Source of the DNA: a virus
Strand: one strand, 5' to 3'
DNA length: 64,000 bases
Virus record (IMG/VR): IMGVR_UViG_3300010396_000037
Below are positions 20,746 to 37,563 of this stretch, in pieces. Numbering within the stretch: the first letter of the stretch is position 1; each line of letters starts with the position of its first letter. The translations under genes and the position numbers were made by a program. The notes under the pieces are model-generated. The model was not told the origin of the DNA, did not search any database, and saw only the letters and a program-made list of their open reading frames with translations.

Positions 20746-22101
20746 ATGCAATTGAATCAGAACGCTGAAAAGATAGTATTACCTGCTCCTTACAACATGG
20801 ATTATTTGTTGGGTGAATGGTTGGACAAAGAGCATTATGATCGTGTGATTGATAGTGATTGTGATGCTTATCAGAAACCATTATTTGGCGATGTGACTGA
20901 ACAGAATTGTTTGTTCCGTTTTAGAAAGAATGTCTTTTCAGAAAATGAACAATCTCAAGCCTATGAAGGACTGATTAACGCAGCTGGTCAGTCTCAAAAT
21001 AGAGGCATGGCGGCTGGCACACGTCATGAAAAATTGAATCAACGTGAGTGGGTCACAGATGCACAACAGGATCTTCTGGATTCTGTTTTTGCGCCTGCTA
21101 GATTAGATGGCAGAGACCCTGTTCAAGAAGCGCTGGACGCTTATCATCCTTCCACTGGTCAATCCCCTGGCAGCAGTGTGCGTGGAACCGTTTGGTTGAG
21201 GGAAAAGATCACTTCAACTTACAACAATTACAATGTGAATGATATCGTTGTTCAGTTTCTCAAGGAAAAAGTCAAGCCTGCTTCCTACCTGGAACGTCAA
21301 CAGCTGGTCAGAGAATTTATCGATCAATATCAATCAGATACAAATTATGCCAATCCTGTGAATTCAGGTGTTGCTGGCGCAATGGGTCGTTACCCAAGAA
21401 TCCCTTATGCACGATTGACTTCTTATAGTCGTGACTATCCAGAACTCTTTGCCAAGAGTTTCCCTTATTTGCATGACTTGAACCAATTTTTCAAGGAGCT
21501 GTTGCCAAATCGTTGGCAATTACAACGTGACGCAGCTGATAAGATTGATCCCAGATTTCTTGTGGCCGACACTGTCTTCAGTACAATCACGGTAAACAAA
21601 ACGTTTCGCACGGCTGCTCATCGTGATGCTGGAGACTTTGGTCCTGGCTTCTCTAATCTTGGAGTTGTTTCAGCTGGCAAATCCTACAAGGGTGGTTATC
21701 TTGTACTTCCTGAATTTAAAGTGGCTATCAATATTCGTCCGGGTGATTTGTTATTGATTGACAATCATGCGTGTATTCATGGTAACACTCCAATTGAACC
21801 TGAAGATTCAAATGATAGTCCTGAAGACATTATTCGTTGTAGTGTTGTTGCCTACTTGAGAGAAGATTTATTGGAAGCGGGTGTAAAGGAATATGAAGAT
21901 GCCCGTTATCAATTTATTGAAGAACGTCGCAATAACAAAAGTCATCCGCTTTGGCGTGAACGCTGGAATGGAGTTTCGCCATCATGGGACAGTTCTGAAG
22001 AGTGGTTCAACTGGCTGAAGAATAAATATGGAAGCCAAGGTGATGAGTGGATTCAAAAACATCACCATGTGCAAACTAATCTGGAAAGTTTCTTCGCATG
22101 A
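20746..22101 (+). CDS. 2OG-Fe(II) dioxygenase, TET/JBP family (5-methylpyrimidine oxidase)
   Basis: FSTITVNK.FRTAAHRDAGD (HxD), GGYLVLPE...PGDLLLID.H..IHGNT (distal H), RCSVVAY.RE (2OG-binding R). Confidence 0.85.
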   Translation: MQLNQNAEKIVLPAPYNMDYLLGEWLDKEHYDRVIDSDCDAYQKPLFGDVTEQNCLFRFRKNVFSENEQSQAYEGLINAAGQSQNRGMAAGTRHEKLNQREWVTDAQQDLLDSVFAPARLDGRDPVQEALDAYHPSTGQSPGSSVRGTVWLREKITSTYNNYNVNDIVVQFLKEKVKPASYLERQQLVREFIDQYQSDTNYANPVNSGVAGAMGRYPRIPYARLTSYSRDYPELFAKSFPYLHDLNQFFKELLPNRWQLQRDAADKIDPRFLVADTVFSTITVNKTFRTAAHRDAGDFGPGFSNLGVVSAGKSYKGGYLVLPEFKVAINIRPGDLLLIDNHACIHGNTPIEPEDSNDSPEDIIRCSVVAYLREDLLEAGVKEYEDARYQFIEERRNNKSHPLWRERWNGVSPSWDSSEEWFNWLKNKYGSQGDEWIQKHHHVQTNLESFFA

Positions 22102-22649
22102 ACAATGTTACAGGAACAGCTAAATTAACTGACCCGTTGGATAGAGATTTAATTCCTTCATCACACAAGTTGTTGCATGAAGTCATGCCTGTGTTTAATT
22201 TTATGAACCCAGACATGAGTCCTGTGGAGTTGTATAATATATTGGGTCATAACATGGTCCGTTACAATGGACTAGGACTATCCGCTAATCAATTAGGTAT
22301 CCGTGCTCGCTGTTTTGTTATGCGAGCCGAGGAAATAATTCCAGTGTTCAATCCTAGAATTATTTCTACTTCTACTGAAACAGTCATGATGAAGGAAGGT
22401 TGTTTGAGTTTCCCTAATCTTGCACTGTCGGTGGAACGTCCAAGACAAATCAAAGCTCGTTTTTTTGATCCTACTGGTCAAGCTAAAACTGTTGACTTGA
22501 TTGGATTATCTGCTCATGTATTCCTGCATGAAATGAATCATTTGGATGGTATAACTTTTGATCAACTTGCTAAACCATTCGCGTTGAAACTAGCCAAGGA
22601 GAAGGCTGCCAAACTTAACAAGAAATTAAACAGAGGACGTAAAGCATGA
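22098..22649 (+). CDS. def: Peptide deformylase
   Basis: GLGLSANQLG, EGCLS, HEMNHLDG. Confidence 0.95.
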   Translation: MNNVTGTAKLTDPLDRDLIPSSHKLLHEVMPVFNFMNPDMSPVELYNILGHNMVRYNGLGLSANQLGIRARCFVMRAEEIIPVFNPRIISTSTETVMMKEGCLSFPNLALSVERPRQIKARFFDPTGQAKTVDLIGLSAHVFLHEMNHLDGITFDQLAKPFALKLAKEKAAKLNKKLNRGRKA

Positions 22650-23356
22650 GTAAGATGCTCTTTTTGGATATAGAAACTGCGCCATCAGTTGCGTATGTTT
22701 GGTCATTATTTGGTAATGATGTCATTCCTATTGATAGAATTGTAAGTCCTGGCTACACTCTTTGCTTCAGTGCAAAATGGAAAAATAAAAGTAAGATGCA
22801 TTTCCATTCCGTACATACAGATGGCAAAAAGAAGATGCTTGAAGCTGCATGGAATTATCTTGACGAAGCTGATACAGTTTGCCACTACAATGGCGCTAGT
22901 TTTGATATTCCGACATTGCGTGGTGAGTTCATGACCAACCATATGATGCCTCCTTCTCCATTCGTACAGATTGATCTCTATAAGACAATCAAAACAGCGA
23001 AGTTGGCAAGCCGCAAACTTGATTATGTTTGCGACCAACTGGGTCTTGGAAATAAAGTAAGACATAAGGGAATGGGTCTGTGGAAAGGATGCATGGCAGG
23101 TAAAGCAGCAGACTGGAAAATCATGACACGCTACAACAAACATGATGTGGTACTGCTTGAAGACTTGTTCTATGAAATTGAACCTTGGGTGAATGGCATT
23201 CCTGCTAGCAAAGATGAATGCAAGCATGTCAACATTATCAAGAAAGGAACATATGCTACGAACAGTAGTGTATATCAGAGGCATTATTGCAAGGATTGCA
23301 ATCACTACATCAAAGGCCAATTATTGTATCGTGTTCCTATGAAATTGAGAGCGTAA
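22646..23356 (+). CDS. DnaQ/RNase H-like (DEDDy) exonuclease with C-terminal Zn ribbon
   Basis: LDIET, HYNG.SFD, KLDY, YNKHDV; C..H...HYCKDC. Confidence 0.8.
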   Translation: MSKMLFLDIETAPSVAYVWSLFGNDVIPIDRIVSPGYTLCFSAKWKNKSKMHFHSVHTDGKKKMLEAAWNYLDEADTVCHYNGASFDIPTLRGEFMTNHMMPPSPFVQIDLYKTIKTAKLASRKLDYVCDQLGLGNKVRHKGMGLWKGCMAGKAADWKIMTRYNKHDVVLLEDLFYEIEPWVNGIPASKDECKHVNIIKKGTYATNSSVYQRHYCKDCNHYIKGQLLYRVPMKLRA

Positions 23357-23357
23357 T

Positions 23358-23642
23358 ATGAGTGATGTTAAAGTAGTGAAATTGATTACAGGTGAAGAGC
23401 TTTTGGCTTCTGTGACAGATTATGTAGAGACAATGATGCTTGAAAAGCCATATGTCATGGTGATGGGTCCAGAAGGTGCTGGTATTATGCCTTGGATGCC
23501 TTACGCTGAGACTGATAATGTGGAAATTGATAAGAACAAAGTCATTGCTGTTTTAGAGCTTAAAGAGTCTGTTAAGCAGTCTTACAGTAAGATGGTTGGT
23601 AAGATCATTTTGAATGAGAGTAAAATTCATTTAGCGAGCTGA
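23358..23642 (+). CDS. Small conserved T4-like protein (Sm-like fold candidate)
   Basis: VKLITGEE..A....P......PW.PY pattern. Confidence 0.65.
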   Translation: MSDVKVVKLITGEELLASVTDYVETMMLEKPYVMVMGPEGAGIMPWMPYAETDNVEIDKNKVIAVLELKESVKQSYSKMVGKIILNESKIHLAS

Positions 23643-23647
23643 TTAAC

Positions 23648-23827
23648 ATGGATATTATTGATATTTTGGGATTGATATTATTTTTGTATGCGGTTACAAC
23701 TACAATAGCATTGTTAATTACTGATTTTATTGTGAAAGAAGATTTTGGTTGGTTTCAGGCATTTCTATGTTTCATTTGGCCTGTATCCTTGATTGCATAT
23801 TTGATAAACAGAATGTGGGAGAAATAA
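23648..23827 (+). CDS. Small membrane protein (59 aa)
   Basis: Manual translation MDIIDILGLILFLYAV...FIWPVSLIAYLINRMWEK. Confidence 0.55.
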   Translation: MDIIDILGLILFLYAVTTTIALLITDFIVKEDFGWFQAFLCFIWPVSLIAYLINRMWEK

Positions 23828-24118
23828 ATGAATAATCCTGTTAAGATTCGTGCGAAGTTCCGTGTAGCACAAGTTTTACCTTATAAGAATGAAAATGGTC
23901 AGACCACTCTAGAACATTGGGAAATGTATGCTGTTGGAGGTAATGGTGTACGTCATGGTTATCCTGAAGACGGTTCAGATGAAGATAATACTTTTTCTAA
24001 GTGGACACCTAATGCTCATCTGACTATGGATGTTCAGAATCCTAATTTGTTTGGAATGCTGAAAGTCAATGATAAGTATTATGTCGACTTCACTTTGGCT
24101 GAAGAAACAACTGTATGA
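23828..24118 (+). CDS. Hypothetical protein
   Basis: RAKF.V...E...F.KWTP......NP......YYVDFT; coupled to neighbours. Confidence 0.65.
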   Translation: MNNPVKIRAKFRVAQVLPYKNENGQTTLEHWEMYAVGGNGVRHGYPEDGSDEDNTFSKWTPNAHLTMDVQNPNLFGMLKVNDKYYVDFTLAEETTV

Positions 24119-24276
24119 TTACAGAAGAACAGGCTAGACTGTTGTGTGAAGCGTTTGGAGTTTTTGAGTTGCTCCAGGATGAAGAGGAAACTGGACTTCT
24201 AGAAGAACATAATCCTTCAATGCTGGATGCGTATATAGACTTGTACCAGATGGCTTATGGAGAAGGATGGTCATGA
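24115..24276 (+). CDS. Small acidic hypothetical protein
   Basis: Manual translation MITEEQARLLCEAFG...; ATGA overlaps on both sides. Confidence 0.5.
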   Translation: MITEEQARLLCEAFGVFELLQDEEETGLLEEHNPSMLDAYIDLYQMAYGEGWS

Positions 24277-24440
24277 AAACTTACGCTGTAATTGATGATT
24301 TTGGTGATGATTGGGAGGAAGGACGCATCGTCCATGAGGCAGATACTCTGGACAGAGTTTATGAATGGGCAGAAGAAAATAATTTTCATAGCGCGTCCAT
24401 AGTGTCCATCGAAGATGATATCAGAGAGATTGTAAGATGA
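24273..24440 (+). CDS. Small acidic hypothetical protein
   Basis: MKTYAVIDDFGDDWEEG...; SD-like GAAGGA upstream. Confidence 0.5.
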   Translation: MKTYAVIDDFGDDWEEGRIVHEADTLDRVYEWAEENNFHSASIVSIEDDIREIVR

Positions 24441-24491
24441 AGAGTGATAAGCTAATGGTACCAGTTGGCATTACAAAGGCTAAGAAATAAC

Positions 24492-25358
24492 ATGGAATTA
24501 AAGATCACCAGAGAAGAATTTTCAAAGAAGAAACTTATGATCTGCTGCCCTATGTATGGCGGCATGTGCACTGGCGTTTTCACACAATCAATGTTGAAAC
24601 TTCAAGGATTGTGCCAACAATATGGGATTGGATTTTCAATCAATTTCCTTTTCAATGAGTCTCTGATTCAGAGAGCTAGAACCTATTTGACTGATAGTTT
24701 TATGCGTTCTGATTGCACGCATCTTTTGTTTATTGACTCTGATATTCAATTTGAAGCCAATGATGTGCTCTTTCTTCTTGGTTTGCAGACTGATGAGTCA
24801 CCTTATGATATCATAGGTGGTGCATATCCAAAGAAGACCATCTCGTGGGAGAAGGTAAAGCAAGCGGTGGATGCAGGAGCTGCTGACAAGAATCCAGCTG
24901 ATCTTGAAAATTTCGTTGGAGACTTTGTCTTCAATCCAGTGATGCCAGATGAAGTAAAAGAAGGTCAAGCATACCAATTGCGTTTAGATGAGCCTGTAGA
25001 GATTATGGAGTTGGGCACAGGTTTTATGATGATCAGACGCTCTTCATTAAAGAAATGGGAAGACGCGCATTCTGACAGACTGTATTTGCCTGATCATGTA
25101 CGCACCAAAGATTTCGATGGGTCAAGAGAAATTTACGAATACTTCACGGTCAAGGTTGATCCTAAGAGCAAGAGACTCCTATCTGAAGACTATCAACTCT
25201 GTCATGAGTTCCGTGATCTTGGAATGAAAGTGTGGTTGTGCCCATGGATGCGATTGGGTCATCTTGGCAGTTATTTGTTTGGAGGATCATTACCAGCATT
25301 GGCTAGCGTAGGAGTTTCAGCCACTGCTGATCCTTCCAAGCTTGTTGATAAGAAATAA
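24492..25358 (+). CDS. GT-A fold glycosyltransferase
   Basis: PMYGG, NESLI.RAR, THLLFIDSDI (DxD), GGAYPKK, GTGFMMI.R, LSEDY..C, L.H.G. Confidence 0.85.
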   Translation: MELKITREEFSKKKLMICCPMYGGMCTGVFTQSMLKLQGLCQQYGIGFSINFLFNESLIQRARTYLTDSFMRSDCTHLLFIDSDIQFEANDVLFLLGLQTDESPYDIIGGAYPKKTISWEKVKQAVDAGAADKNPADLENFVGDFVFNPVMPDEVKEGQAYQLRLDEPVEIMELGTGFMMIRRSSLKKWEDAHSDRLYLPDHVRTKDFDGSREIYEYFTVKVDPKSKRLLSEDYQLCHEFRDLGMKVWLCPWMRLGHLGSYLFGGSLPALASVGVSATADPSKLVDKK

Positions 25359-25369
25359 GGAAGAACATT

Positions 25370-25792
25370 ATGTGTGTTGTATCATTCGTTGGCAAGCATT
25401 ATGAGGATGAATTCAGTAAGAAGCCGTACAGGCCATGGGAAGCTCCGACAGTTCCGGGTTGGCCACCAACATATTATCCAAAACCATCTGATGAAGAAGT
25501 GAAGAGGCAAATAGAGAAACTTCAAAATGGTGTTGTTTCTAACGAAGAAATCAAGAAACAGGTTGAAGAGCTTAGAAAGCAAGTAGAAGAGATGAAAAAG
25601 TTCTTGATTGAAGCTCTTGAATATGACAGACTTTACAAACAACCAGATTGTGAAAATGATCTCAAGATTGCATTCTTGAAGAAAGTTGCGGAGTCAGTTG
25701 GTCTAACCTTGGATGATATTTTTCCAAACAAACCAACTCCACCACCTTCCCGTTTGATAAAGGAACACCAGACTCCTAAAAAGAAGAAATAA
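25370..25792 (+). CDS. Hypothetical coiled-coil protein
   Basis: AGGA SD; MCVVS..., heptads, QPDCE. Confidence 0.6.
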   Translation: MCVVSFVGKHYEDEFSKKPYRPWEAPTVPGWPPTYYPKPSDEEVKRQIEKLQNGVVSNEEIKKQVEELRKQVEEMKKFLIEALEYDRLYKQPDCENDLKIAFLKKVAESVGLTLDDIFPNKPTPPPSRLIKEHQTPKKKK

Positions 25793-25795
25793 TAG

Positions 25796-26035
25796 ATGGA
25801 TTTTGAAGCTAATCTGACTTCCTTTTGTAGTGAAATACAATACTTGGTAAACAATGGCCACACTTATCTGGAGTCATTGACTTTGTATATTGATATGCAC
25901 AATTTGGATGTTGAAACTGTTTCACAGATGGTTAAAAAGAACAAAGCATTGATGGAGAATTTAGCAGCGGAATGCTCTGAAAACATGATGTTAAAAACCA
26001 AGAAAAAAGATTCATTGAAAAAGTTTTTGAAGTAA
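25796..26035 (+). CDS. gp33: Late transcription coactivator gp33
   Basis: F..EI..LV.....YLE....Y......E.......L...L..E......LK; C-terminal SLKKFL. Confidence 0.75.
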   Translation: MDFEANLTSFCSEIQYLVNNGHTYLESLTLYIDMHNLDVETVSQMVKKNKALMENLAAECSENMMLKTKKKDSLKKFLK

Positions 26036-26048
26036 AGCGATATACAAT
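26024..26048 (+). promoter_or_regulatory. TTTTTGAA-N11-TACAAT promoter-like motif upstream of the gp45-44-62-regA operon
   Basis: Motif recurrence. Confidence 0.6.
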
Positions 26049-26068
26049 AATTGAATTGGAGATAGTCT

Positions 26069-26269
26069 ATGTCTGAAAATAATAATACTAACTATGGTGG
26101 AATCGGTTTCACTGGATTGTTAACCATAGTGTTCATCGTTTTGAAGCTGACGCATGTTATTAATTGGTCATGGTGGTGGGTTCTAGCACCTACTTTAATC
26201 CCATTAGGATTGATTGTAATTATTTTGTTGATAGCGACGTTTGTCTTTTATATTAACAGTAGGAGTTGA
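26069..26269 (+). CDS. Small membrane protein
   Basis: GGIGF.GLLTIVFIVLKL..VI.WSWWWVLAP. Confidence 0.7.
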   Translation: MSENNNTNYGGIGFTGLLTIVFIVLKLTHVINWSWWWVLAPTLIPLGLIVIILLIATFVFYINSRS

Positions 26270-26271
26270 TT

Positions 26272-26952
26272 ATGAAGTTGTCTGAACGCACTGTTTCATT
26301 ATTGAAAAATTTCGCTGGTATCAATCCCAGCATCCTGATCAAACCAGGAAATGTTTTGCAAACTATCAATCCAATGAGTAGCGTGATTGCGACTGCCACG
26401 ATTGAAGAGTCTTTCCCTAAAGAATTTGCGATCTATGACTTGAATCAGTTCTTGTCTGCAATTTCTATGTTCAAGGATTGCAACATTGAATTTGGTGAAG
26501 GATATCTAGAGTTGAAGGGTGAGGGAAGTGCGACGATTCGCTATTGGTGCGCTGAACCATCTTTGATTAAGTCAAAGGTGTCTGAAGTTAAGTTGCCAAG
26601 CGAAGATGTTCAATTCAATTTATCTGAAACAGCATTGTCTAAGGTTCTGAAAGCTGCTTCAATTCTTGCTTTGCCGGAGCTTGCTTTTGCATCTAATGGT
26701 GATACACTATCTGTTAAGGCAATTGATAGTCGCTCTAGTTCAAGCAATTCAATGGATGTTGAATTGTGCAAGAATGAAAGTGGTAGCAAATTCAATATTA
26801 TCTTCCAGGTTGATAACTTGAAGATGCTTGTTCAAGACTATGCTGTGACAGTTTGCGCCAAGGGTATTACCAAGTTTCATAGCACAGGCAAGAATGAATA
26901 TGAATTGACATATTATGTAGCTTCATCTGTTCACTCAACATTCGCGAAGTAA
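26272..26952 (+). CDS. gp45: Sliding clamp gp45
   Basis: MKLS..T..LLKNF..IN.SI, F.IYDL..FL, NLKM....Y.V, Y.VA. Confidence 0.96.
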   Translation: MKLSERTVSLLKNFAGINPSILIKPGNVLQTINPMSSVIATATIEESFPKEFAIYDLNQFLSAISMFKDCNIEFGEGYLELKGEGSATIRYWCAEPSLIKSKVSEVKLPSEDVQFNLSETALSKVLKAASILALPELAFASNGDTLSVKAIDSRSSSSNSMDVELCKNESGSKFNIIFQVDNLKMLVQDYAVTVCAKGITKFHSTGKNEYELTYYVASSVHSTFAK

Positions 26953-26963
26953 GAGGCAATAAA

Positions 26964-27911
26964 GTGATTTCTACTAATACTAATGAATTTTTGTGGGTCG
27001 AAAAATTTCGTCCCAAGACAGTTTCAGAAACTATTCTTCCAACAACATTGAAGAAAACATTTCAGACGTTTGTTGATCAGAAGAATATTCCTAACTTGTT
27101 GTTGAATGGTGGCGCAGGGATTGGCAAGACTACCGTAGCTAAAGCTATGTGCAGTGAGTTGGACTGTGATGTTCTATCAATCAACGCAAGTCTAAATGGT
27201 AATGTTGATACACTAAGGAATGAAATAGCACAATTCGCTTCTACTATGTCTTTCAAGACTGGTAGAAAGATTGTATTCCTGGATGAAGCTGATGCGTTGA
27301 CTGATGCAACTCAAAAGGGTTTGCGTGGCTTCATGGAAGAGTTTGCATCAAACTGTGGATTCATTCTGACTTGTAATTTCAAAAACAGGATCATTGATCC
27401 TCTTCATTCAAGACTTTCTATCATTGAGTTCTCCATTCCAAAAGAAGAACAACCAAAGCTAGCTATGGAATTCTTCAAGAGAATGGAAGAAATCTTGGAG
27501 ACTGAAGGAGTTGGTTATGATAAGGAAGCTGTGGTTGCTCTAATCAAACAGCATTTTCCAGATTGGAGGAGAGTGATCGGTGAGCTTCAACGCTACAGTG
27601 CTACAGGGTACATAAATACAGGTGTACTGGCAACTGTAAAAGATGAAGATTTTGACGAATTGGTTGGGTTGTTGAAGAACAAGAAGTGGAATGAGATGAG
27701 AAAGTGGGTGGGTGAACACACTGATGTTGAACCAAACGCATTACTCCGCAGGTTCTATGATCAATCCAAGTCGGTTGTTAAACCTGCGTCAATTCCAACG
27801 TTGGTGTTATTGCTAGCTGAAACTCAATACAAGTTGCAGTTTTCAGCTGATTCAGAAATTTGTATCGCTGCATTTCTAACTCAAGTTATGAGTGAAGTTT
27901 CATTTACTTAA
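26964..27911 (+). CDS. gp44: Clamp loader large subunit gp44
   Basis: LWVEKFRP, G.AGIGKTT, DEAD, LRGFMEEF, PLHSR, FPDWRR. Confidence 0.96.
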   Translation: MISTNTNEFLWVEKFRPKTVSETILPTTLKKTFQTFVDQKNIPNLLLNGGAGIGKTTVAKAMCSELDCDVLSINASLNGNVDTLRNEIAQFASTMSFKTGRKIVFLDEADALTDATQKGLRGFMEEFASNCGFILTCNFKNRIIDPLHSRLSIIEFSIPKEEQPKLAMEFFKRMEEILETEGVGYDKEAVVALIKQHFPDWRRVIGELQRYSATGYINTGVLATVKDEDFDELVGLLKNKKWNEMRKWVGEHTDVEPNALLRRFYDQSKSVVKPASIPTLVLLLAETQYKLQFSADSEICIAAFLTQVMSEVSFT

Positions 27912-27922
27912 ACAGGTGATTT

Positions 27923-28123
27923 ATGGTATTCAAGAAGAAAGTTAAACCAACATTTGAACAGTGGTCTCAACTAAAGGAAACAATTACACAATTTCCGTTG
28001 ACTCCAGCTGTTATTGTTTCGGAGTTTCAAAAGAGTCGTGGTGTAGACTTGAATCGTGTGCGTATTGATGCTATGCGCGAAGAATATGAGAAAATTTATG
28101 GCGAAGGCGAAGAAAACTTGTGA
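27923..28123 (+). CDS. Hypothetical protein between gp44 and gp62
   Basis: AGGTG SD; 66 aa. Confidence 0.6.
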   Translation: MVFKKKVKPTFEQWSQLKETITQFPLTPAVIVSEFQKSRGVDLNRVRIDAMREEYEKIYGEGEENL

Positions 28124-28565
28124 GGTTGCAGAACTAACAGATGGTACAAAAGTAGGACTGTTTGATCTAATATCAGACGTATCTTACAACAAGACTGACT
28201 TGTTGCATGACAAACGTACTGGACTGGTCAAGACAAATGTTCTAAGAGTCTATGTTCCTTACATGGTTAACAGAGCATTTTCATTAGACCTGTCGTCTAT
28301 TCTTGATGCTCAGATTATGAATGAGTCCTACTTCCTGAATCCTGATATTCAGCATGATTTTTATCTACATGCATTGCGTAAGGCAAAACGATTCAACAAA
28401 TGGCCCAAAACAGTTATTGAAGATGAAATCAAGATCATTTCTGAAGAATATCAAGTTAATGTCAAGCAGGCCAGAGAAATTGCCAGAACTTTGACTAAAG
28501 AACAAAAAAACATCATTCTAACAAAACAACAAAGCAAGGGTGGCAAAGATGGAAGAAAACAATGA
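28098..28565 (+). CDS. gp62: Clamp loader small subunit gp62
   Basis: Y.PYMVNRAFS...D......MN....Q.DF....LRK.KRF.KW; C-terminal KGG. Confidence 0.9.
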   Translation: MAKAKKTCEVAELTDGTKVGLFDLISDVSYNKTDLLHDKRTGLVKTNVLRVYVPYMVNRAFSLDLSSILDAQIMNESYFLNPDIQHDFYLHALRKAKRFNKWPKTVIEDEIKIISEEYQVNVKQAREIARTLTKEQKNIILTKQQSKGGKDGRKQ

Positions 28566-28968
28566 TCCGTTTGATGGAGTTGGTCTGAGGATCACCCTTC
28601 CGAGCACTGATGGTGCCTTTTTAAAGATCAAGGAAACTTTGACCCGTGTAGGGTTATATTCAAAGTCTGATGGTCGTCAAGTGTTGGTGCAGTCATGCCA
28701 TATTCTTCACAAGCGTGGCGAATATGCAATTGTACATTTCAAGGAAATGTTTTCTCTGGATCATAGGGATTCAACTTTTACTTATCAAGACGAGGCAAGA
28801 CGAGACGCTATCGCAATTTTGCTTCAAGAGTGGGGTTTGTTAACTCTGCTCGACCAACCTGCCACTTTAGAGGCTGATCGAAAGGCAGCGAAGTTCAAAG
28901 TTGTGTCCTACAAAGATAAATCTAATTGGTTGTTGAAGAGTAAGTACACGTTTTCGCAGAGAAAGTAA
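28549..28968 (+). CDS. regA: Translational repressor RegA
   Basis: FLKIKETLTR.G, L.QSCHILHKRG.Y.IVHFKEMF.LD, LL.EWGL, W.L..KY. Confidence 0.96.
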   Translation: MEENNDPFDGVGLRITLPSTDGAFLKIKETLTRVGLYSKSDGRQVLVQSCHILHKRGEYAIVHFKEMFSLDHRDSTFTYQDEARRDAIAILLQEWGLLTLLDQPATLEADRKAAKFKVVSYKDKSNWLLKSKYTFSQRK

Positions 28969-28977
28969 GAGCAGAGA

Positions 28978-29082: not shown

Positions 29083-29339
29083 CTGTTGATGTGGGAAGAC
29101 CTCCAATGATTGGATTTCCTAATTGTGATAAAATTGTTGAAGACATTCGCAAAAAAGAAGATGAAGATATTATTTCAAGAACTTTAGATGGAACCGATGT
29201 ATTTTATGGTGGTGGTTATGTAGAAGGTGTAAATGTTCCCACACCAGCTTGTATAAATGATGTAATTTGGTATGGTGTCACGGAACAAGAAGAATCAAAG
29301 TTTGAGCATAATGAGTTTTACAATAGACCTATCTGTTGA
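29079..29339 (+). CDS. Hypothetical protein
   Basis: Probable start MTVDVG with GAGG SD. Confidence 0.55.
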   Translation: MTVDVGRPPMIGFPNCDKIVEDIRKKEDEDIISRTLDGTDVFYGGGYVEGVNVPTPACINDVIWYGVTEQEESKFEHNEFYNRPIC

Positions 29340-29350
29340 GGATAAATACA

Positions 29351-29764
29351 ATGGCAAACAAGAAGAAAGACGTGATAGTTTCAGATGTTACTGTTTCTAA
29401 GAAGAAGAACAAAGCAGTTAAGAAAGTTGTGAAGAAAACTGCAACCAAAAAGACCGTGGCGAAGAAGGTCAAGAAAAGTCAAGCGGTGAGTCAGAGCCCA
29501 GTGTCTAGGACTAAAACACTGAAGGGGCAATTGACGACTACTGTGTCTAAAGTAGATACTAATACACCAGTTAACAGATGGGCCGCCCCTATTGATCCTC
29601 TTTTGGCAGATAAGTTGGAACTGATTGATGATATACAATGCTCTAATACTTTTGAAATGAGAGAGCACAAGATGCTTGAAGCTGCTAGAATTGAACAACA
29701 GGATAAAGTCGAACTCAAGATTCCGTTTTGGGCTCGCATTTTGTGGTGGTTTGTTAAGAAGTGA
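29351..29764 (+). CDS. Lys-rich (histone H1-like) protein with hydrophobic C-terminus
   Basis: KKKNKAVKKVVKKTATKKTVAKKVKK; ends FWARILWWFVKK. Confidence 0.6.
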   Translation: MANKKKDVIVSDVTVSKKKNKAVKKVVKKTATKKTVAKKVKKSQAVSQSPVSRTKTLKGQLTTTVSKVDTNTPVNRWAAPIDPLLADKLELIDDIQCSNTFEMREHKMLEAARIEQQDKVELKIPFWARILWWFVKK

Positions 29765-30066
29765 ATGAGAGAGAAAAGCAAGCCTTTCTGACCTATGCTG
29801 ATGCTATTATAGCTGAATGCCACAAAGTCAGATTCGAAGAAGGTGTACCTGGTTCAGCTCGCTATTCTAATATGGAAGAGAAATTGACTGAACCACGACA
29901 GTTTTATGTCTTGGGTCATAGTGATGGCCGTGAAAAGATGGCTAAAGAAATATTGAACATCATGAAAGCCTTGCAGACAGTTGAACAAAAATATAGTGAT
30001 GAGATTGTTAAGCAATCATTAACAAAAATTGCAAAGGATCCAAGATGGAAATTGAAAAAGAATTGA
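29761..30066 (+). CDS. Hypothetical protein
   Basis: Coupled ORF. Confidence 0.5.
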   Translation: MNEREKQAFLTYADAIIAECHKVRFEEGVPGSARYSNMEEKLTEPRQFYVLGHSDGREKMAKEILNIMKALQTVEQKYSDEIVKQSLTKIAKDPRWKLKKN

Positions 30067-30317
30067 TTGCAAAGGAATTGCGCAAACATTCTCAAGAGCT
30101 TCGAGCAAAAATAGATAACAATCTGACGAATGCAACATGTACAAAAAATTTTGAACGTGATAGTGAAATCATCAATTGCGAATGTCACGCTATCTTTAAA
30201 TTAGAGCAAAAATACAAGAAGAAGCATGATAAGCTTGTAAGAAAATATAGCAAACGTTCCACATGTTTGCGTGGATGTAAAATTTGTAACAGAATCCGAA
30301 ATTGGCTGCATATTTGA
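30045..30317 (+). CDS. Hypothetical Cys-containing basic protein
   Basis: Overlapping ORF; CEC, C..GCKIC. Confidence 0.5.
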   Translation: MEIEKELIAKELRKHSQELRAKIDNNLTNATCTKNFERDSEIINCECHAIFKLEQKYKKKHDKLVRKYSKRSTCLRGCKICNRIRNWLHI

Positions 30318-30325
30318 GGTGATTC

Positions 30326-30910
30326 ATGGCACAGAAGAAAGAAGTGGTAAGTGGATCATTGGATGATCTGAGGATAGAACGCAGCGGTGTTGGTGATGTT
30401 AATGGTAAAGGTCGTGGTTCAGCTGCTCGTTTCAACGCAGGTAAGATGAGGTATGATTTGCTTGATATTGGAGTGTTAATAGAGTCACTTAAAATTGAGT
30501 TGGAGGATTCCCTGTACTTGCCTGTTTTGGAAAGTCTTTCCAAATGGCAACATGGTGGCACGTCTGAAGATTTATTGCAATCTGCACTGACTCTTTCTAT
30601 ATTGACTTCCAGCAACTGGAGTGAGAATCCAGCTTGTATAGGTTATGTTCCCTGGGATCAATGTGCTGAAGTTTTTGAATATGGTGCCAAGAAATATTCA
30701 GAATGGAATTGGTTGCGTGGCCAGTCTTGGTCTATTCCATTTGCTTGTTGTTTAAGGCATTTGGCTAAGATTTCTAGAGACGAATGGATTGATCCAGAAT
30801 CTGGCAAAACACATCTTGGCCATTTTCTTTGTAATGTAATGATGCTATGCTACTTTGAGAAGGAATACACGGAAGGCGATGATCGTCCTCCATTCCTGAA
30901 TAAAGAATGA
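30326..30910 (+). CDS. dATP/dGTP diphosphohydrolase-like protein (DUF5664 family)
   Basis: RFNAGK.RYDLL...AEVFEYGAKKY..WNW..G......LRHL......DPESG..HL.H..CN..ML. Confidence 0.8.
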   Translation: MAQKKEVVSGSLDDLRIERSGVGDVNGKGRGSAARFNAGKMRYDLLDIGVLIESLKIELEDSLYLPVLESLSKWQHGGTSEDLLQSALTLSILTSSNWSENPACIGYVPWDQCAEVFEYGAKKYSEWNWLRGQSWSIPFACCLRHLAKISRDEWIDPESGKTHLGHFLCNVMMLCYFEKEYTEGDDRPPFLNKE

Positions 30911-30917
30911 GGATCCA

Positions 30918-33428
30918 ATGCGTTTCTATACTAATGTTGTCAATCGTGGAAAGAACATCTATGTTCGAGGTTGGGCTGAAGGCAAACGTTGGGCTGAAGT
31001 AATACCATACAAACCACGTCTTTATATCGAGAACAATAAACAACTCACGGCAGGTAAGTGGGTTGATATGATGTCCGGTAAAGCACTGGCACAAGTTGAT
31101 TTTGATAATATCTATGAAGCTAAAGACTTCATCAAACAATATGATGGGTTGAATGATTTTCATATCTATGGATCAACTGATTGGACTGGTCAATACATAT
31201 TTGATGTTTTCCCAGGAGAGGTGCATTCTGACCTGAACAGGATCAATGTGCTGTTTATGGATATTGAAGTAGATTCTAAGAATGGATATGCTTCTGTAAA
31301 CAGTGCTGAGAATGAAGTCATCTCAATTACGATCTGCACGCGTGGTAAGTATTATGTATTGGGTTTGGTTGACTTCAAAGTGCCAGAAGGCAAGAATGTT
31401 CAATATCACAAGTGTAGCAGTGAACGTGAACTCCTTGTTATCTTTCTACAATGCTGGGAGAAGGCCGATCCTGACGTTGTAACAGGATGGAACACCAATG
31501 GCTACGACTTACCTTATCTGATCAATCGCATTTCTCGAGTCTTTGGAGAGGAAGAATGCAAGAAGCTTTCTCCATGGAGAAAAATGCCAGTCTTGAAGGA
31601 CGCAATTGGTAAAGCTGGTCGCAAAACGATCAAACCTTACATTGATGGCATCGCTTGTCTTGATTATTATGATCTCTACACCAATGGTAAATTCGTTCAA
31701 AGTCAACGTGAAGAATACACACTTGACTATATTTCTAGATATGAACTTGGTTCTGAAAAGACAGATTACAGCCAGTATGGATCACTTGCGAAATTTTATG
31801 AACAGAATCCACAGCTCTTCATAGAATACAACATCCATGACGTTGAATTGGTTGTTGCTCTGGATGCCAAGTTGAAGTTTCTTGAGCTGGTCTATTCGAT
31901 GGCTTATGATGCCAAAGTCAACTATCAAGATACTTTAGGATCAGTGTTCATCTGGGAAAACATCATCCGTAATCACCAGATGTCTAAGGGAATGGTTCCG
32001 CCATTAAAGAAAGACGTGGGCGAGAAGAACCAATCTATTGTAGGTGGTTATGTCAAAAACCCAAATCCTGGTATGTATCATTGGGTTGTAACCTTTGACG
32101 CGTCATCCCTGTACCCTTCTTTGATTCGACAATTGAATATCAGTCCAGAGACACTTCAGGGTGTAATGTATTCTGTCGACAGGTCTGACTTAGATGGTAG
32201 TGGTTGGGAAGAAGCGAGGGCGTTGGCTCAAGAAAACAATTGGACGATTGCTTCTAATGGCGCAGCTTTTGATGTTGAAAGAAGTGGATGTCTACCAGAA
32301 TTGATGTACATCTATTATCAGAAAAAGAATGATGCGTCAAAACTTCAAATTGAAGCAGAAAAAGAGTTACAGCTGAAACCTGGTGATAAGGAATTAGAAC
32401 TTCGCATTCAGAATCTGAAGTCAAAGATATTCGCAACCAAGGTGCTACTCAATTCTTGTTTCGGTGCAACATCTAATCCTTACTTCCAGTTCTCTGACGA
32501 TAGAATCGCGGAAGCAATTACAACTTCAGGTCAGACGTTGATTCAGACCGCTGCAAAAAGAGTCAATGCACAATTTTGCAAGATCATGAAAAGCAATCGT
32601 GATTACATTATTGCTTCTGATACAGACTCAATTATTGTGGATTGTTCTTCAATTGTTGAAGCTGCCAAATGGAATGGTTCTTTGAATCCAACTGCGTCTG
32701 TTGAAGAAACAACCAAGTTCCTCAATAGATTGTGCGAAGCTAAACTGAACCCATTGCTTGATGAAATCATGGATGAGATAGTTAGCAAGACTCATGCTCG
32801 TGAAAAAGCAGTGTTCATGGTGCGTGAAGCAATTTGCGACACAGTAGTTTGGGTGGCTGCTAAGAATTACATGATGCGCATTTGGAACAACAAAGGCGTC
32901 ACATACAAGAATCCTAAATACAAGATCATGGGTCTTGAAGCTGTTCGTTCTACCACTCCAACTGCTTGTAGAAAAGCTTTGAAGCATTCAATTGAATTGA
33001 TACTAGATGAAAATCAACAGGGATTGTTAGATTACATAGAGGAATTCAAGAAAGTATTTTGGAACTCTGATTATTCTGAAGTCAGTAAGAACATTAGCGT
33101 GAGATTTGGTTCACCTGTTGTTACTCAACAGATCAGAGCAGCAACAGTGTATAACAATGCCATCAAAGAAAGAAATTTGGAAAATCTCTATTCTTTGATA
33201 TCACATGGTAGTAAAATACGCCTCTTGCATCTAAAGAAACCAAATCCATTGGGGTCTGATATTATTGGATTCCCAGAAGGCAAGCTTCCAAAGGAATTTG
33301 GAATTGACAAGTATATTGACAAAGAACAAATGTTTGAAAAGACATTCATGGTTCCGCTTGAAAAGATGGTTAAAGCAGGTGGAATGAGTATTAAGCAAGA
33401 AGATTCATTGTCTGCATTTTTTGTTTGA
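30918..33428 (+). CDS. gp43: Family B DNA polymerase gp43
   Basis: DIEV (ExoI), GWN..GYD, YNIHDV, D.SSLYPS, K...NS.FG, SDTDS. Confidence 0.97.
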   Translation: MRFYTNVVNRGKNIYVRGWAEGKRWAEVIPYKPRLYIENNKQLTAGKWVDMMSGKALAQVDFDNIYEAKDFIKQYDGLNDFHIYGSTDWTGQYIFDVFPGEVHSDLNRINVLFMDIEVDSKNGYASVNSAENEVISITICTRGKYYVLGLVDFKVPEGKNVQYHKCSSERELLVIFLQCWEKADPDVVTGWNTNGYDLPYLINRISRVFGEEECKKLSPWRKMPVLKDAIGKAGRKTIKPYIDGIACLDYYDLYTNGKFVQSQREEYTLDYISRYELGSEKTDYSQYGSLAKFYEQNPQLFIEYNIHDVELVVALDAKLKFLELVYSMAYDAKVNYQDTLGSVFIWENIIRNHQMSKGMVPPLKKDVGEKNQSIVGGYVKNPNPGMYHWVVTFDASSLYPSLIRQLNISPETLQGVMYSVDRSDLDGSGWEEARALAQENNWTIASNGAAFDVERSGCLPELMYIYYQKKNDASKLQIEAEKELQLKPGDKELELRIQNLKSKIFATKVLLNSCFGATSNPYFQFSDDRIAEAITTSGQTLIQTAAKRVNAQFCKIMKSNRDYIIASDTDSIIVDCSSIVEAAKWNGSLNPTASVEETTKFLNRLCEAKLNPLLDEIMDEIVSKTHAREKAVFMVREAICDTVVWVAAKNYMMRIWNNKGVTYKNPKYKIMGLEAVRSTTPTACRKALKHSIELILDENQQGLLDYIEEFKKVFWNSDYSEVSKNISVRFGSPVVTQQIRAATVYNNAIKERNLENLYSLISHGSKIRLLHLKKPNPLGSDIIGFPEGKLPKEFGIDKYIDKEQMFEKTFMVPLEKMVKAGGMSIKQEDSLSAFFV

Positions 33429-33437
33429 GGATTAGAT

Positions 33438-34484
33438 ATGGCAAATGTTGAATTACTGAAAAGATTAAAAGCAGCATCAACTATTGATGAAACATCAATG
33501 CTGGAAGATTCAGTGGTGTTTCAGAAAAAGGATTTGGTTCAGACTCCTGTTCCAATGTTGAATGTTGCATTATCAGGCATGCTGGATGGCGGATTTGCTT
33601 CTGGCTTGACGGTATTTGCGGGTGAGAGCAAAAGGTTCAAGACTATGTATGTCTTGATTTGTGCTGCTGCTTATCTGAAGAAATATCCTGATTCTGTTCT
33701 TTTGTTTTATGATTCTGAATTTGGTACTCCACAATCATATTTCAGTTCACTTGGTATTCCTCTGGATAGAGTGATTCATACACCTATTACAACTGTTGAA
33801 CAATTGCGTTCAGATATAGCCAATCAGTTGAATGCTATCAAGAAAGGAGACAGAATTTTCATTGCAGTTGATTCTGTAGGAAATCTTGCGTCTGCAAAAG
33901 AAGTCAATGATGCCTTAGACGAGAAGTCCGTAGCAGATATGACACGCGCCAAACAATTGAAGTCTCTCTTTCGTATTATCACTCCACAGTTGACATTGAA
34001 AGATGTTCCATGTTTTGTTGTTAATCATACTTACAAAACCATGGAGCTTTATTCCAAAGATGTTGTATCTGGCGGAACAGGTGTTTATTATAGCTCTGAT
34101 AACATCTTTATTATTGGTCGACAACAAGAAAAAGAAAAAGATAAATTGTCTGGTTTTAATTTCATTATTAATGTAGAGAAGTCACGTTTTGTAAAGGAAA
34201 AGAGTAAAATACCGATTAGTGTTTCTTTTGAGCATGGTATGCAAAAGAATTCTGGATTGCTTGAATTGGCTCTTGAGTTGAATTATGTAACTTCGCCAAA
34301 ATTGGGACAATATGCTTTCGTGAATCGCAAGACTGGTGAAGTAGAAGATAAGACATTCAAAAAGACCGAAACCACTAAACCAGAATTTTCCAAACGTTTG
34401 TTGGATGATGTTGATTTTCAAGAAGCTGTTAAGGATAAGTTTCAGATTGCTAGGACAGCTCTGTTTAAGAATGATGAGGAATAA
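33438..34484 (+). CDS. uvsX: RecA-like recombinase UvsX
   Basis: NVALSG, AG.SK.FKT, FYDSEFG, DSVGNLAS.KE, ADMTRAK, VNHTY, VSGGTG. Confidence 0.96.
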   Translation: MANVELLKRLKAASTIDETSMLEDSVVFQKKDLVQTPVPMLNVALSGMLDGGFASGLTVFAGESKRFKTMYVLICAAAYLKKYPDSVLLFYDSEFGTPQSYFSSLGIPLDRVIHTPITTVEQLRSDIANQLNAIKKGDRIFIAVDSVGNLASAKEVNDALDEKSVADMTRAKQLKSLFRIITPQLTLKDVPCFVVNHTYKTMELYSKDVVSGGTGVYYSSDNIFIIGRQQEKEKDKLSGFNFIINVEKSRFVKEKSKIPISVSFEHGMQKNSGLLELALELNYVTSPKLGQYAFVNRKTGEVEDKTFKKTETTKPEFSKRLLDDVDFQEAVKDKFQIARTALFKNDEE

Positions 34485-34486
34485 GA

Positions 34487-35902
34487 ATGCCACAACCAAT
34501 CGAAGTTGAAATTTTAAACGGTTTGGTGTTTGATTCGGAGTTTGCTAAGCTTGCTTTGCCGCACTTTGAAGATGAATATTTTTCTGATGATGGTACAAGA
34601 ACAGTTTTGAGCCTTGCTCGTGATTATATTGGTAAGTACGGAAGTCAACCAACGATTGATGCTTTAGCAATTGATCTGCAATCTGTAAAAGAGTTGACAC
34701 AGGACCAGTTTGAAGGTGCTAAGAATGTTATTCAAGAATTGAAACCGAGTGAAACTGACTACAAATGGCTGGTAGATAAAGCTGAAGGATTCTGCCAAGA
34801 TCGTGCTTTGTATCTTGGTATCATGCAAGCCATTCACATTGTTGATGGTAAGGAAACCAAGCATGGTATCTCTAAAGGAGCAATTCCTGACTTACTGCAA
34901 AAGGCATTGGCTGTCAATTTTGATCGTTCCATAGGTCATGATTACTTTTCTCAAGCTGATGCTCGTTTTGCATTCTATCATAATGATGAAGAACACATAC
35001 CATTTGATCTGGAGATGCTCAACCGCATCACCAAAGGTGGTTTGTACCGCAAGACTTTAAATGTTTTCACCGCTGCACCAGGAGTTGGTAAAACTCTGAC
35101 AATGTGCCATATGGCTGCATCATATGTTGCATCTGGTTTGAAAGTTCTATACATCACAATGGAAATGTCTGAAGAAAGGATTGCTCAGAGAATTGACGCG
35201 AACTTACTTGATGTATCCTTGAATGAGATAGAAAATATTTCTAGAGCGGATTTTGATTCCAGAGTGCAAAGAGCACGTTCCAGAATGACGGGTGATATAG
35301 TCATCAAAGAATTCCCGACTGGTGGTGGAAACGTCAATCATTTCAGACATTTACTTTCTGAATTGGACCAGAAGAAGAGATTCAAACCGGATGTTATCTT
35401 CGTTGACTATATGAATATTTGTTCATCAGCCCGTTACCGTAATGGCGATGGAGCAAATAGTTATTCTGTCGTGAAAGCTATTGCTGAAGAGTTGAGAGGC
35501 ATGGCGGTTGAATTCAATGTTCCCGTTGTTACAGCAACACAGTTTAACCGTGAAGGAGCGGGTTCGTCTGATCCTGAAATGACGAATACATCAGACAGCT
35601 TCGGAACACCCATGACGGCTGACTTGCAATTGGCAATCTACTCTACTCCAGACCTGGATGAACAGGGTAAGTTGGTTATCAAGCAATTGAAGAATCGCTA
35701 CAATGATAAGACAGAATACAAGAAGTTTCTGTTAAGAGTGGATAAGAGCAAAATGCGTTTGATGGATGATGATGTGCTGGAAGGATACTCAACTTCTTTG
35801 TCTGATAAGGAAAAGAAGAACATTGAAGAAATGTCTAATGCTCGCAAACCAACACATGATGAAAAATCATTTGGTGGGTTTGATTTTGGAGAGGATGAAT
35901 AA
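34487..35902 (+). CDS. gp41: Replicative DNA helicase gp41
   Basis: GHDYF, A.PGVGKT, TMEMSEERI..RIDAN, IKEFPT, VDY, ATQ.NR, KQLKNRY.D. Confidence 0.96.
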   Translation: MPQPIEVEILNGLVFDSEFAKLALPHFEDEYFSDDGTRTVLSLARDYIGKYGSQPTIDALAIDLQSVKELTQDQFEGAKNVIQELKPSETDYKWLVDKAEGFCQDRALYLGIMQAIHIVDGKETKHGISKGAIPDLLQKALAVNFDRSIGHDYFSQADARFAFYHNDEEHIPFDLEMLNRITKGGLYRKTLNVFTAAPGVGKTLTMCHMAASYVASGLKVLYITMEMSEERIAQRIDANLLDVSLNEIENISRADFDSRVQRARSRMTGDIVIKEFPTGGGNVNHFRHLLSELDQKKRFKPDVIFVDYMNICSSARYRNGDGANSYSVVKAIAEELRGMAVEFNVPVVTATQFNREGAGSSDPEMTNTSDSFGTPMTADLQLAIYSTPDLDEQGKLVIKQLKNRYNDKTEYKKFLLRVDKSKMRLMDDDVLEGYSTSLSDKEKKNIEEMSNARKPTHDEKSFGGFDFGEDE

Positions 35903-35903
35903 T

Positions 35904-37085
35904 ATGCGCGTATGTGTACTCTATTGGCCTATCAGTGGTGTGGGTGGTATCTCAACTTTCATGAAGCATATGAAAGCAGTCGCAGATGATCGTGGAGATA
36001 CATTCCATGTTCTCTGTTCGCCAAATCAGAAAGGTAAAGAAGTTGGGTTATTGCCAGAAGCAACTGAAGTGGCTGGTGGTTCATCTAACATCTTGATTGA
36101 TGGATATGTGCCGCATCATCCATCTAACTTCGAGAAGTCCGCTGATTTCATCGCCAAGAATTATGACGTGGTTCTAACAGCCCATTTATGTCCAAGACCT
36201 AACAAGTCTTATGGTGAAGAACCCGTTTTCTTAAATCTTCTGAATGAATTGCATGCAAAAAATGTTAGAATGATTGGATTCATTCATGATGGGTATTGGG
36301 ACACTTACAAGGAGTTCGGCATTCCAACTCTTGAGTTAATGCAGAAAACAATTATTGCGCAGCCAACTTATGCCAAACCAATTCTAACAGAAAAACACTA
36401 TCCAATTGAACCAACTTATCTGGCCATTCATCCACGAATTCTAGAAGCCAATAAACTTGAAGGCGATCAAAGAAATCGTAAGCGCGTTGTCTGGTTGCCA
36501 CAATGGAAGCGCATCAAAGGTACACACCTGATGCTACAAGGACTTCCTGAGGCAGAACAGATAGGATATGATGTACATCTTTATGGATGCGGCATTGATT
36601 ATTACAACGCATGTTTGGAAGATAGCTGGAAGAAGATGATTGGTAAAGATCTATTCCGTCCAGATTGTTCTGGCCAAGGAACAGCAACTTATTTCGGTAC
36701 AAGACCATACAACGAAGTTTCTGTTGCTTTACAACAAGCAACTTTCTCACTAGATTTCCAAGGTCACAGTGCAAAATATAAGACTGCATATGAAACTGGT
36801 TCTTACAATTATACTCATCTTGAAAGTCTATATTGGGGATGCGTACCTGTTGTGCATAAAAATTTCTTGAAGAATGACATACCAGATGATTTGGTTCTTG
36901 CTCTTGACCACCCTGAAATGTGGGCAAACGCCATCAAGAAGTATTGTAGCTTTAATTACCCAACCGAAAAAGCCAGGGAGTATGTATTGGAACATCATTC
37001 TGCTACAAGGCATTATGACCAGACATTTTCAATGGAATGTAAAGAGATTAAGGAAGAAGGTGGTCTTTCGGCATTCTTTGTATGA
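35904..37085 (+). CDS. GT-B fold glycosyltransferase (T4 alpha-glucosyltransferase-like DNA glycosyltransferase candidate)
   Basis: MRVCVL....GVGGI N-terminal loop, FIHD, W..IKG, NYTHLE..YWGCVPV; in the replication operon after gp41. Confidence 0.75.
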   Translation: MRVCVLYWPISGVGGISTFMKHMKAVADDRGDTFHVLCSPNQKGKEVGLLPEATEVAGGSSNILIDGYVPHHPSNFEKSADFIAKNYDVVLTAHLCPRPNKSYGEEPVFLNLLNELHAKNVRMIGFIHDGYWDTYKEFGIPTLELMQKTIIAQPTYAKPILTEKHYPIEPTYLAIHPRILEANKLEGDQRNRKRVVWLPQWKRIKGTHLMLQGLPEAEQIGYDVHLYGCGIDYYNACLEDSWKKMIGKDLFRPDCSGQGTATYFGTRPYNEVSVALQQATFSLDFQGHSAKYKTAYETGSYNYTHLESLYWGCVPVVHKNFLKNDIPDDLVLALDHPEMWANAIKKYCSFNYPTEKAREYVLEHHSATRHYDQTFSMECKEIKEEGGLSAFFV

Positions 37086-37538: not shown

Positions 37539-37563
37539 TCTTCAATTGAATAGAGGATATTTT

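Follow-up and report, generated by a model that had tools for sequence, protein, structure and literature searches.

Why would two enzymes that modify DNA end in the same kind of short peptide as the replicative DNA polymerase? The question is raised by a 64,000-nt stretch of viral DNA, IMG/VR record IMGVR_UViG_3300010396_000037, which we refer to as the window. (Coordinates are positions in this whole stretch unless another record is named, and all of the window's features that we discuss are on the plus strand.) The window belongs to an uncultured T4-like phage, with a plus-strand replication module at 15.6-47 kb (GC 39%). Similar hydrophobic tails are found at the C-termini of the family-B DNA polymerase gp43 (30918-33428), a TET/JBP-type (5mYOX) DNA dioxygenase (20746-22101), and a GT-B glycosyltransferase (35904-37085), and a variant is found on the late-transcription coactivator gp33 (25796-26035). 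We think that the tails of the dioxygenase and the glycosyltransferase probably dock on the sliding clamp, gp45, and that phage DNA is chemically masked there, when it has just been copied. Our case for binding to gp45 comes from comparing sequences and from the published clamp-binding peptides of T4 and RB69.

Tails of the polymerase and of the modifying enzymes

According to the translations, gp43 ends with EDSLSAFFV, the glycosyltransferase with EGGLSAFFV, the dioxygenase with TNLESFFA, and gp33 with DSLKKFLK, exactly as a sequence-only reading of this DNA had given them. (The last eight residues are encoded at 33402-33425, 37059-37082, 22075-22098, and 26009-26032, respectively.) As that reading had also pointed out, gp43 and the glycosyltransferase have their last six residues in common but use different codons. 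The codons differ at 4 of the 6 positions, so the match did not arise by recent copying of DNA; the sequences downstream of the two genes are also unrelated. Just 4e-6 other proteins in the window would be expected to end with this hexapeptide. More broadly, 3 of the 92 called genes encode a C-terminal L-x-x-F-F-x, versus 0.014 expected (P = 5e-7, binomial test). The shared tails are real and are far beyond what chance would give.

The sequence-only reading had proposed two checks on the tails, conservation of LxxFF among homologs and co-variation with the tail of the cognate gp43, and both turned out in its favor; the lack of conservation that would have counted against it did not occur. Roughly 90% of the dioxygenase's homologs have the tail, and so do the close homologs of the glycosyltransferase. 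Specifically, the motif [ST]-L-[ED]-x-F-F ends 106 of the 120 best homologs of the dioxygenase (45-100% identity), behind a linker that varies. The L, F, and F positions vary little (entropy of 0.4-0.6 bits), unlike the 8 linker residues in front of the motif (2.9-3.8 bits). By these alignments, the tail is under selection. Homologs of the glycosyltransferase are rare (we found only 12 among 5.8 billion proteins). Those at 94% and 64% identity retain the tail (...GLSAFFV and ...SLTSFFA), most of those in a clade at 42-47% identity stop right past the catalytic domain, and a clade at 33% identity has another extension, ...(L)DMF(S/N)MF(G/V).

As for co-variation, we compared 72 within-genome pairs of tails from 46 distinct loci, using as a control tails that were shuffled from genome to genome within their family. 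The two tails have a matching aromatic dipeptide in 41 pairs, versus 19.6 on permutation (0/5000 shuffles reach 41), and they match in their number of trailing residues in 49 pairs, versus 41.2 expected (P = 0.03); because the genomes are related and the permutation ignores their kinship, the P values are smaller than they should be. As the carriers are from unrelated families, the agreement was not inherited within one protein. Pairs of the dioxygenase and gp43 are found in at least 20 related contigs, and the tail variants FF, LF, MF, FL, and VSLF follow the cognate gp43 within genomes. For example, L-F replaces F-F in both the dioxygenase and gp43 of two loci (L050 and L082). In four others (L056-L059), M-F is found in the dioxygenase, a GT-B glycosyltransferase, and an unnamed 191-aa protein, and in another (L062), F-L is found in the dioxygenase and a TAGT glycosyltransferase. 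In L065, L066, and L112, F-F is the very end of all of the carriers. The polymerase-type end can also be less canonical, as in G017, where gp43 ends with ...QVSLF and the TAGT with ...SVSLF.

Two cultured phages show the same pattern. In Stenotrophomonas phage DLP6 (L123, KU682439), gp43 ends with ATLDSFFA, the dioxygenase with ATLGDFFV, and the TAGT with SDLSSFFN. In Caulobacter phage Cr30 (L124, KF301602), gp43 ends with ADLSSLFD and a TAGT-like protein with SDLSKLF. Both of these cultured phages have a tailed dioxygenase and TAGT and so are ready experimental systems. (In GenBank, the TET/JBP homologs of DLP6, Cr30, and S-CBWM1 (L180), which is also cultured, are labelled "SNF2 DNA repair protein," apparently in error.)

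Which protein families carry the tail? We scanned every stop-delimited open reading frame (ORF) in 80 IMG/VR loci with homologs of the dioxygenase, in loci that we added around them, and in the window. (The related sequences were drawn from IMG/VR and from scans of metagenomes, and the families of the carriers were named by using Pfam.) In the loci with the dioxygenase, the motif is at the C-terminus 108 times, versus 2.3 times expected from its internal frequency. The tail is present in 79 of 83 dioxygenases, 20-22 of 22 gp43 proteins, all 17 members of three GT-B families, 12-15 of 15 TAGT glycosyltransferases (PF20691), and all three copies of the 191-aa protein. It is also present in 7 of 17 GNAT acetyltransferases and in 12 of 30 amino acid:DNA transferases (ADDT, PF18724) by the strict pattern, or about 20 of 30 by eye. 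On the other hand, none of the 234 copies of eight other proteins has the tail: gp45 (0/36), gp44 (0/28), gp41 (0/18), UvsX (0/22), gp46 (0/34), gp47 (0/29), peptide deformylase (0/29), and a conserved 297-aa protein (0/38). According to this tally, the tail is a mark of gp43 and of enzymes acting on the bases of DNA, not of replication proteins generally.

The tail also goes with the type of replisome. Four IMG/VR records, one of which is a complete 47-kb genome, have a tail-less homolog of the glycosyltransferase, and we found no gp43 and no match to gp45 in them. These records carry a gene of the thymidylate synthase family near the glycosyltransferase, which suggests a pre-replicative, hydroxymethylase route to the modified base. 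The tailed glycosyltransferases are in T4-like records that encode gp45 (the window, L010, G001, and G002). The ends in G001 and G002 are ...VMDWF(A/S) for gp43 and ...(M/F)DMFNMF(V/G) for the glycosyltransferase. G001 (L004) is a complete 171-kb T4-like genome with its tailed glycosyltransferase at 108272-109549, and in it we found no dioxygenase (by local tblastn) and no gene of the thymidylate synthase family. Among TET/JBP proteins, those of HTVC112P and P12024L, which are small phages, are tail-less, as is the divergent homolog from S-CBWM1, while that of the T4-like phage C48C1 is tailed. Overall, the tails exist, are selected, are specific to gp43 and the modifying enzymes, co-vary within genomes, and are missing where there is no gp45.

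The two enzymes and their substrate

The sequence-only reading had named the tailed enzymes as a TET/JBP dioxygenase and a GT-B glycosyltransferase, and we agree with both names, the second by fold only. The dioxygenase (451 aa) matches Pfam's Tet_JBP (PF12851) with 71.7 bits (the cut-off is 34.9 bits; E = 5e-20) as well as PHROG 24024. Its catalytic domain is at about residues 227-373, and the HxD...H...R residues (H292, D294, H345, and R364) are invariant in 35 aligned homologs. In an AlphaFold 2 model (mean predicted local distance difference test, or pLDDT, of 83), the best-matching folds are CcTet, TET2, and NgTET1 (E ~2e-8), which are 2OG-Fe(II) jelly-rolls.

The glycosyltransferase (393 aa) has no match in Pfam or PHROG and does not belong to a curated glycosyltransferase family by sequence. 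(Its ORF is 35766-37085; we set the start at 35904 by aligning the homologs.) The AlphaFold 2 model (pLDDT 86, predicted TM score 0.84) has the two Rossmann domains of a GT-B fold. The top match in the PDB is 1Y6F, which is the alpha-glucosyltransferase of T4 (E = 2e-13, TM 0.69). Together with 1YA6 and 1Y8Z, the structures of this enzyme match with TM 0.65-0.69 (some were solved with DNA), and they are followed by GT4 enzymes. As modelled, the 393-aa protein is a GT-B glycosyltransferase that is shaped like T4 alpha-glucosyltransferase. From the fold, the co-occurrence with the dioxygenase, and the thymidylate-synthase-family genes beside the tail-less homologs, we infer that it moves a sugar onto a hydroxymethyl-pyrimidine in DNA. 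In the models of both enzymes, the last ~10 residues are low-confidence extensions with a short helix at the end. The pLDDT is below 50 at residues 383-393 of the glycosyltransferase, which are predicted to be disordered, and is low at residues 441-451 of the dioxygenase.

Which base would be oxidized? We found no C5-methyltransferase (PF00145) in 10 related records, of which 4 are complete or nearly so and which include Cr30 and DLP6, while control genomes were matched. Nor did we find one among the ORFs of the window that we scanned. The absence of a C5-methyltransferase makes thymine a likelier substrate than 5-methylcytosine, and it has been argued that a 5mYOX with no methyltransferase nearby is a dioxygenase of thymine (PMC13229309). 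Also, amino acid:DNA transferases, known from the hypermodification of thymidine (PMC8989533), make up many of the tailed neighbors of the dioxygenase. As judged by gene content, the likelier chemistry is from thymine to 5-hydroxymethyluracil to a glycosylated base.

Near the glycosyltransferase, an ORF at 38237-38857 has a weak, sub-threshold match to PIG-L (sugar de-N-acetylase; E = 0.0035) and is tail-free. It could represent an amino-sugar branch of the DNA modification.

What the tail may bind

The sequence-only reading had stated that the C-terminal peptides of T4's gp43, gp33, and gp55 bind the clamp, and this is borne out. In the T4 genome (NC_000866), these proteins have the tails SLDFLFG (gp43, the counterpart of DSLSAFFV in the window), TLDFLL (gp33), and SLDFLY... 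(gp55), and all three fit the motif. The three tails have been described as similar and interchangeable sliding-clamp-binding epitopes that lie behind variable linkers (PMC2988020). In T4 and RB69, peptides of this class dock on gp45, which is reported to be the common partner of the tails of T4 gp33 and gp43. LDFLF has been crystallized in the hydrophobic pocket of gp45, and was termed the T4 gp45-interaction motif (PMC6212786). The consensus for the tails in our set is [ST]-L-[DE]-x-[LF]-F-(x). (The tails in the window have S/A or E/S where the consensus has D/E-x.) Some of the gp43 tails, such as TLEDLFG, are nearly the T4 sequence. The gp45 of the window matches, by sequence, the structures of the T4 clamp (1CZD and 6DRT) and the RB69 clamp (1B77 and 1B8H), and gp43, gp45, and the clamp loader proteins gp44 and gp62 are all encoded within the window.

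The sequence-only reading had proposed that the oxidase and the sugar transferase ride on gp45 and modify nascent DNA behind the fork, and that they are thereby directed at phage DNA rather than host DNA; our comparisons support this reading. We infer that gp45 is the tails' partner, that they dock at or behind the fork, that phage DNA is thereby told apart from host DNA, and that the modified base derives from thymine. The pathway might work as follows. The dioxygenase would make a hydroxymethyl-pyrimidine, most likely 5-hydroxymethyluracil from thymine, and the glycosyltransferase would put a sugar on the resulting hydroxyl. Each of these enzymes ends with an x-L-x-x-F-F-x peptide, as gp43 does, and the peptide lies behind a linker that is predicted to be flexible. 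First, gp44/62 would put gp45 on the primer ends of replicating phage DNA. There would be free pockets on the trimeric clamp, or on clamps that remain on finished Okazaki fragments. The oxidase and the sugar transferase would then dock via their tails and travel along the new duplex. Docking would keep the enzymes locally concentrated, let them scan in one dimension, and make them selective for the DNA that the phage replisome just made.

Several observations weigh against this proposal. First, the gp55 of the window phage has a basic end and no hydrophobic tail, so the resemblance to T4 is incomplete. Second, T4 alpha-glucosyltransferase co-purifies with gp45 (PMC13216743), and it has no LDFLF-like motif anywhere in its sequence, so contact with the clamp does not need such a tail. 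(The interaction is credited to Sommer et al. 2004, as cited in PMC13216743, where the pull-down was repeated.) Third, the tail is missing from some members of the carrier families: at least about a third of the amino acid:DNA transferases, 10 of the 17 GNAT acetyltransferases, and the dioxygenases of G017 and S-CBWM1. In G017 (L111), the homolog of the dioxygenase (66898-69113) ends with a Cys-rich stretch, ...CNGCNKICNGRGE, and the adjacent TAGT has a polymerase-type end, ...VSLF. Fourth, the tails come in family-specific flavors. Most amino acid:DNA transferases have G-L-E-A-(L/F)-(W/L/Y), such as GLEALW, and the GNAT acetyltransferases have ...F-L-(L/I), such as FLL. (These versions, in L040, L072, L103, and other loci, are closer to the TLDFLL of T4 gp33.) Fifth, a baseplate protein in the window (9654-10316; Pfam T4_baseplate, PHROG 150) ends with ...RGIRDFFAF, so an FF end is not diagnostic by itself. 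Proteins of 233-261 aa from G014, G015, Cr30, and DLP6 end with G-x-x-D/N-F-F-x and are like the baseplate protein in both size and end. Here, an apparently conserved aromatic tail is found on a structural protein that is not obviously connected to the clamp. Finally, the kinship among the genomes, which we described above, makes the P values of the co-variation too small.

The first two of these points can be counted in favor of a common hub other than gp45, such as the single-strand-binding protein, the helicase loader, or a host protein; the tails would dock on this hub, and it would unite the polymerase with the modifying enzymes in place of the clamp. We consider another hub to be unlikely, because the gp43 tail of T4 and RB69 has been shown to bind gp45 and the T4 tail fits our motif. 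Also, gp33 is tailed in the window, and the published partner of the gp33 tail is gp45 (PMC2988020). Furthermore, the records with tail-less homologs of the glycosyltransferase are those without gp45 and gp43.

It is less probable still that the tail is a tag for turnover, timing, or solubility, such as a degron or a chaperone signal, with no tethering to DNA. Such a tag would be carried by proteins whose removal or control has to be joint. A short, disordered, hydrophobic peptide at the C-terminus is a common form for a degron. But this one is found on the essential replicative polymerase, where it matches a T4 peptide whose role in binding the clamp was demonstrated. It is confined to enzymes that act on DNA, it co-varies with the tail of the polymerase, and it is lost in phages without the T4-type replisome. 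As for the idea that the tail has no function (that is, it arose by chance, from a copied segment of DNA, or from a shared 3' regulatory sequence that is read as protein), the shortness and low complexity of the motif speak for it, but we give this idea almost no weight, as the expected counts, the differing codons, the unrelated downstream DNA, and the conservation across 120 homologs with variable linkers already contradict it.

If docking on gp45 is the correct explanation, could the clamp be more than a tether? It is possible, although we would lean against it, that gp45 is a required activator or processivity factor for a whole clade of thymine dioxygenases and for the transferases that act downstream. 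There is a parallel in another subclass of 5mYOXs, which is activated by a ParB-like protein that is related to CTP-gated DNA clamps. The clade C1 5mYOXs, which lack ParB, were reported to be inactive in heterologous assays (PMC13229309). If gp45 were their activator, then this could explain the lack of activity, as well as why post-replicative hypermodification is complete and is confined to phage DNA.

Hypermodification of phage DNA after replication is an active field, and the rationale for modifying DNA after rather than before replication has been called a mystery (PMC13229309). A polymerase-type tail is present on the oxidase as well as four or more families of downstream transferases, which suggests a concrete and testable answer: the clamp may mark fresh phage DNA and carry the enzymes to it. 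If so, these enzymes would be a new class of clients for the sliding clamp "toolbelt," and both the targeting and the completeness of the modification would be explained. There is a practical implication as well. The C-terminal His-tags in the studies that we cite may mask the motif, and gp45 and its loader belong in the in vitro assays.

Surrounding genes and known systems

We searched the INPHARED phages for the whole region with megablast and for the glycosyltransferase with tblastn, and we did not find a close relative among isolates. The replication module begins with UvsW (15639-17156) and the late sigma factor gp55 (17153-17722), which is 46% identical to the gp55 of DLP6 and 36% identical to that of T4 (BLASTP E = 8e-50 and 5e-25, respectively). 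Three genes were assigned by their position and by synteny with DLP6: gp47 (17966-19027), gp46 (19027-20736), and UvsX (33438-34484). The dioxygenase is followed by peptide deformylase (22098-22649) and an exonuclease (22646-23356). The start of the deformylase overlaps the stop of the dioxygenase, and the annotated start in DLP6 does likewise; a homolog of the deformylase is present in 29 related loci.

The conserved 297-aa protein (24465-25358; PHROG 1574) lies between the dioxygenase and gp45. It has no match in Pfam, and its basic end is conserved. The sole lead from the protein atlas is a cluster of nucleotide-diphospho-sugar transferases. By tblastn, it is also present in groups of Sinorhizobium phages and Synechococcus ACG-2014f phages, which are absent among the tblastn matches for the dioxygenase.

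Farther along is gp33 (79 aa), which matches Pfam's Trans_coact with 47.5 bits. We found no homologs of gp33 in the related loci by using phmmer. A small protein that is encoded 5' of gp45 in other loci was considered as gp33 and was rejected, as it has a DsbA-like end (...LYE...). Then come gp45 itself (26266-26952, with a probable ATG at 26272; Pfam gp45-slide_C, PHROG 223 at 1e-67), the clamp loader proteins gp44 (26964-27911; PHROG 168 at 8e-112) and gp62 (28056-28565; Pfam Phage_clamp_A), and RegA (28540-28968). The polymerase gp43 has 836 aa and matches PHROG 262 at 2e-243 as well as Pfam's DNA_pol_B and an exonuclease domain. Besides UvsX, gp41 (34487-35902) separates it from the glycosyltransferase. 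Directly 3' of the glycosyltransferase are two SegE-like GIY-YIG homing endonuclease ORFs (37082-37462 and 37546-38322). The first of these is short (126 aa) and consists of the nuclease domain alone, and it begins at an overlap with the stop of the glycosyltransferase. RNase H (42398-43318) and the small subunit of ribonucleotide reductase (44910-45956) are farther downstream.

How do the tails compare to known systems? The closest are the epitopes of T4 and RB69 gp43, gp33, and gp55, along with the internal LDFLF loop of T4 DNA ligase (PMC2988020, PMC6212786; 1B8H, 6DRT). Like the C-terminal epitopes, our tails are short hydrophobic-acidic peptides at the extreme C-terminus, behind a variable linker, and they are present on the cognate gp43 and gp33. 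Unlike in T4 or RB69, the carriers are base-modifying enzymes (the dioxygenase, glycosyltransferases, amino acid:DNA transferase, and acetyltransferase), which are not known clients of the clamp, and, unlike in T4, the gp55 of the window phage is without a tail. T4 alpha-glucosyltransferase is the nearest precedent for the window's glycosyltransferase, as it has the same GT-B fold and is a T4-type DNA glycosyltransferase that contacts the clamp. However, it acts on 5-hydroxymethylcytosine that was put in before replication, and the sequence identity is ~14%. Its contact with the clamp was judged not to set the alpha/beta ratio (PMC13216743).

The pathway resembles the published 5mYOX hypermodification pathways with GT, TAGT, and AADT enzymes (PMC8256090; bioRxiv 10.1101/2023.12.21.572611; PMC8989533; PMC13229309) in its enzyme families, gene neighborhoods, and post-replicative chemistry. 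All of these studies but PMC8989533 noted clamp or clamp-loader genes nearby, and term searches of the four papers found no description of a clamp-binding tail on the modifying enzymes. Nor did full-text searches, which did not reach the original prediction of TET/TAGT systems by Iyer et al. 2013, find any paper that claims clamp tails on such enzymes. One published subclass of 5mYOXs needs a ParB-like activator, while the clade that we describe has no ParB and has the tail of the polymerase.

A more distant comparison is to eukaryotes, where the PIP-box tethers DNA-modifying enzymes such as DNMT1 to PCNA, and new DNA is marked promptly. The clamp, the motif, and the chemistry are different, and we do not imply any homology, but in both cases a modifying enzyme would be coupled to the sliding clamp.

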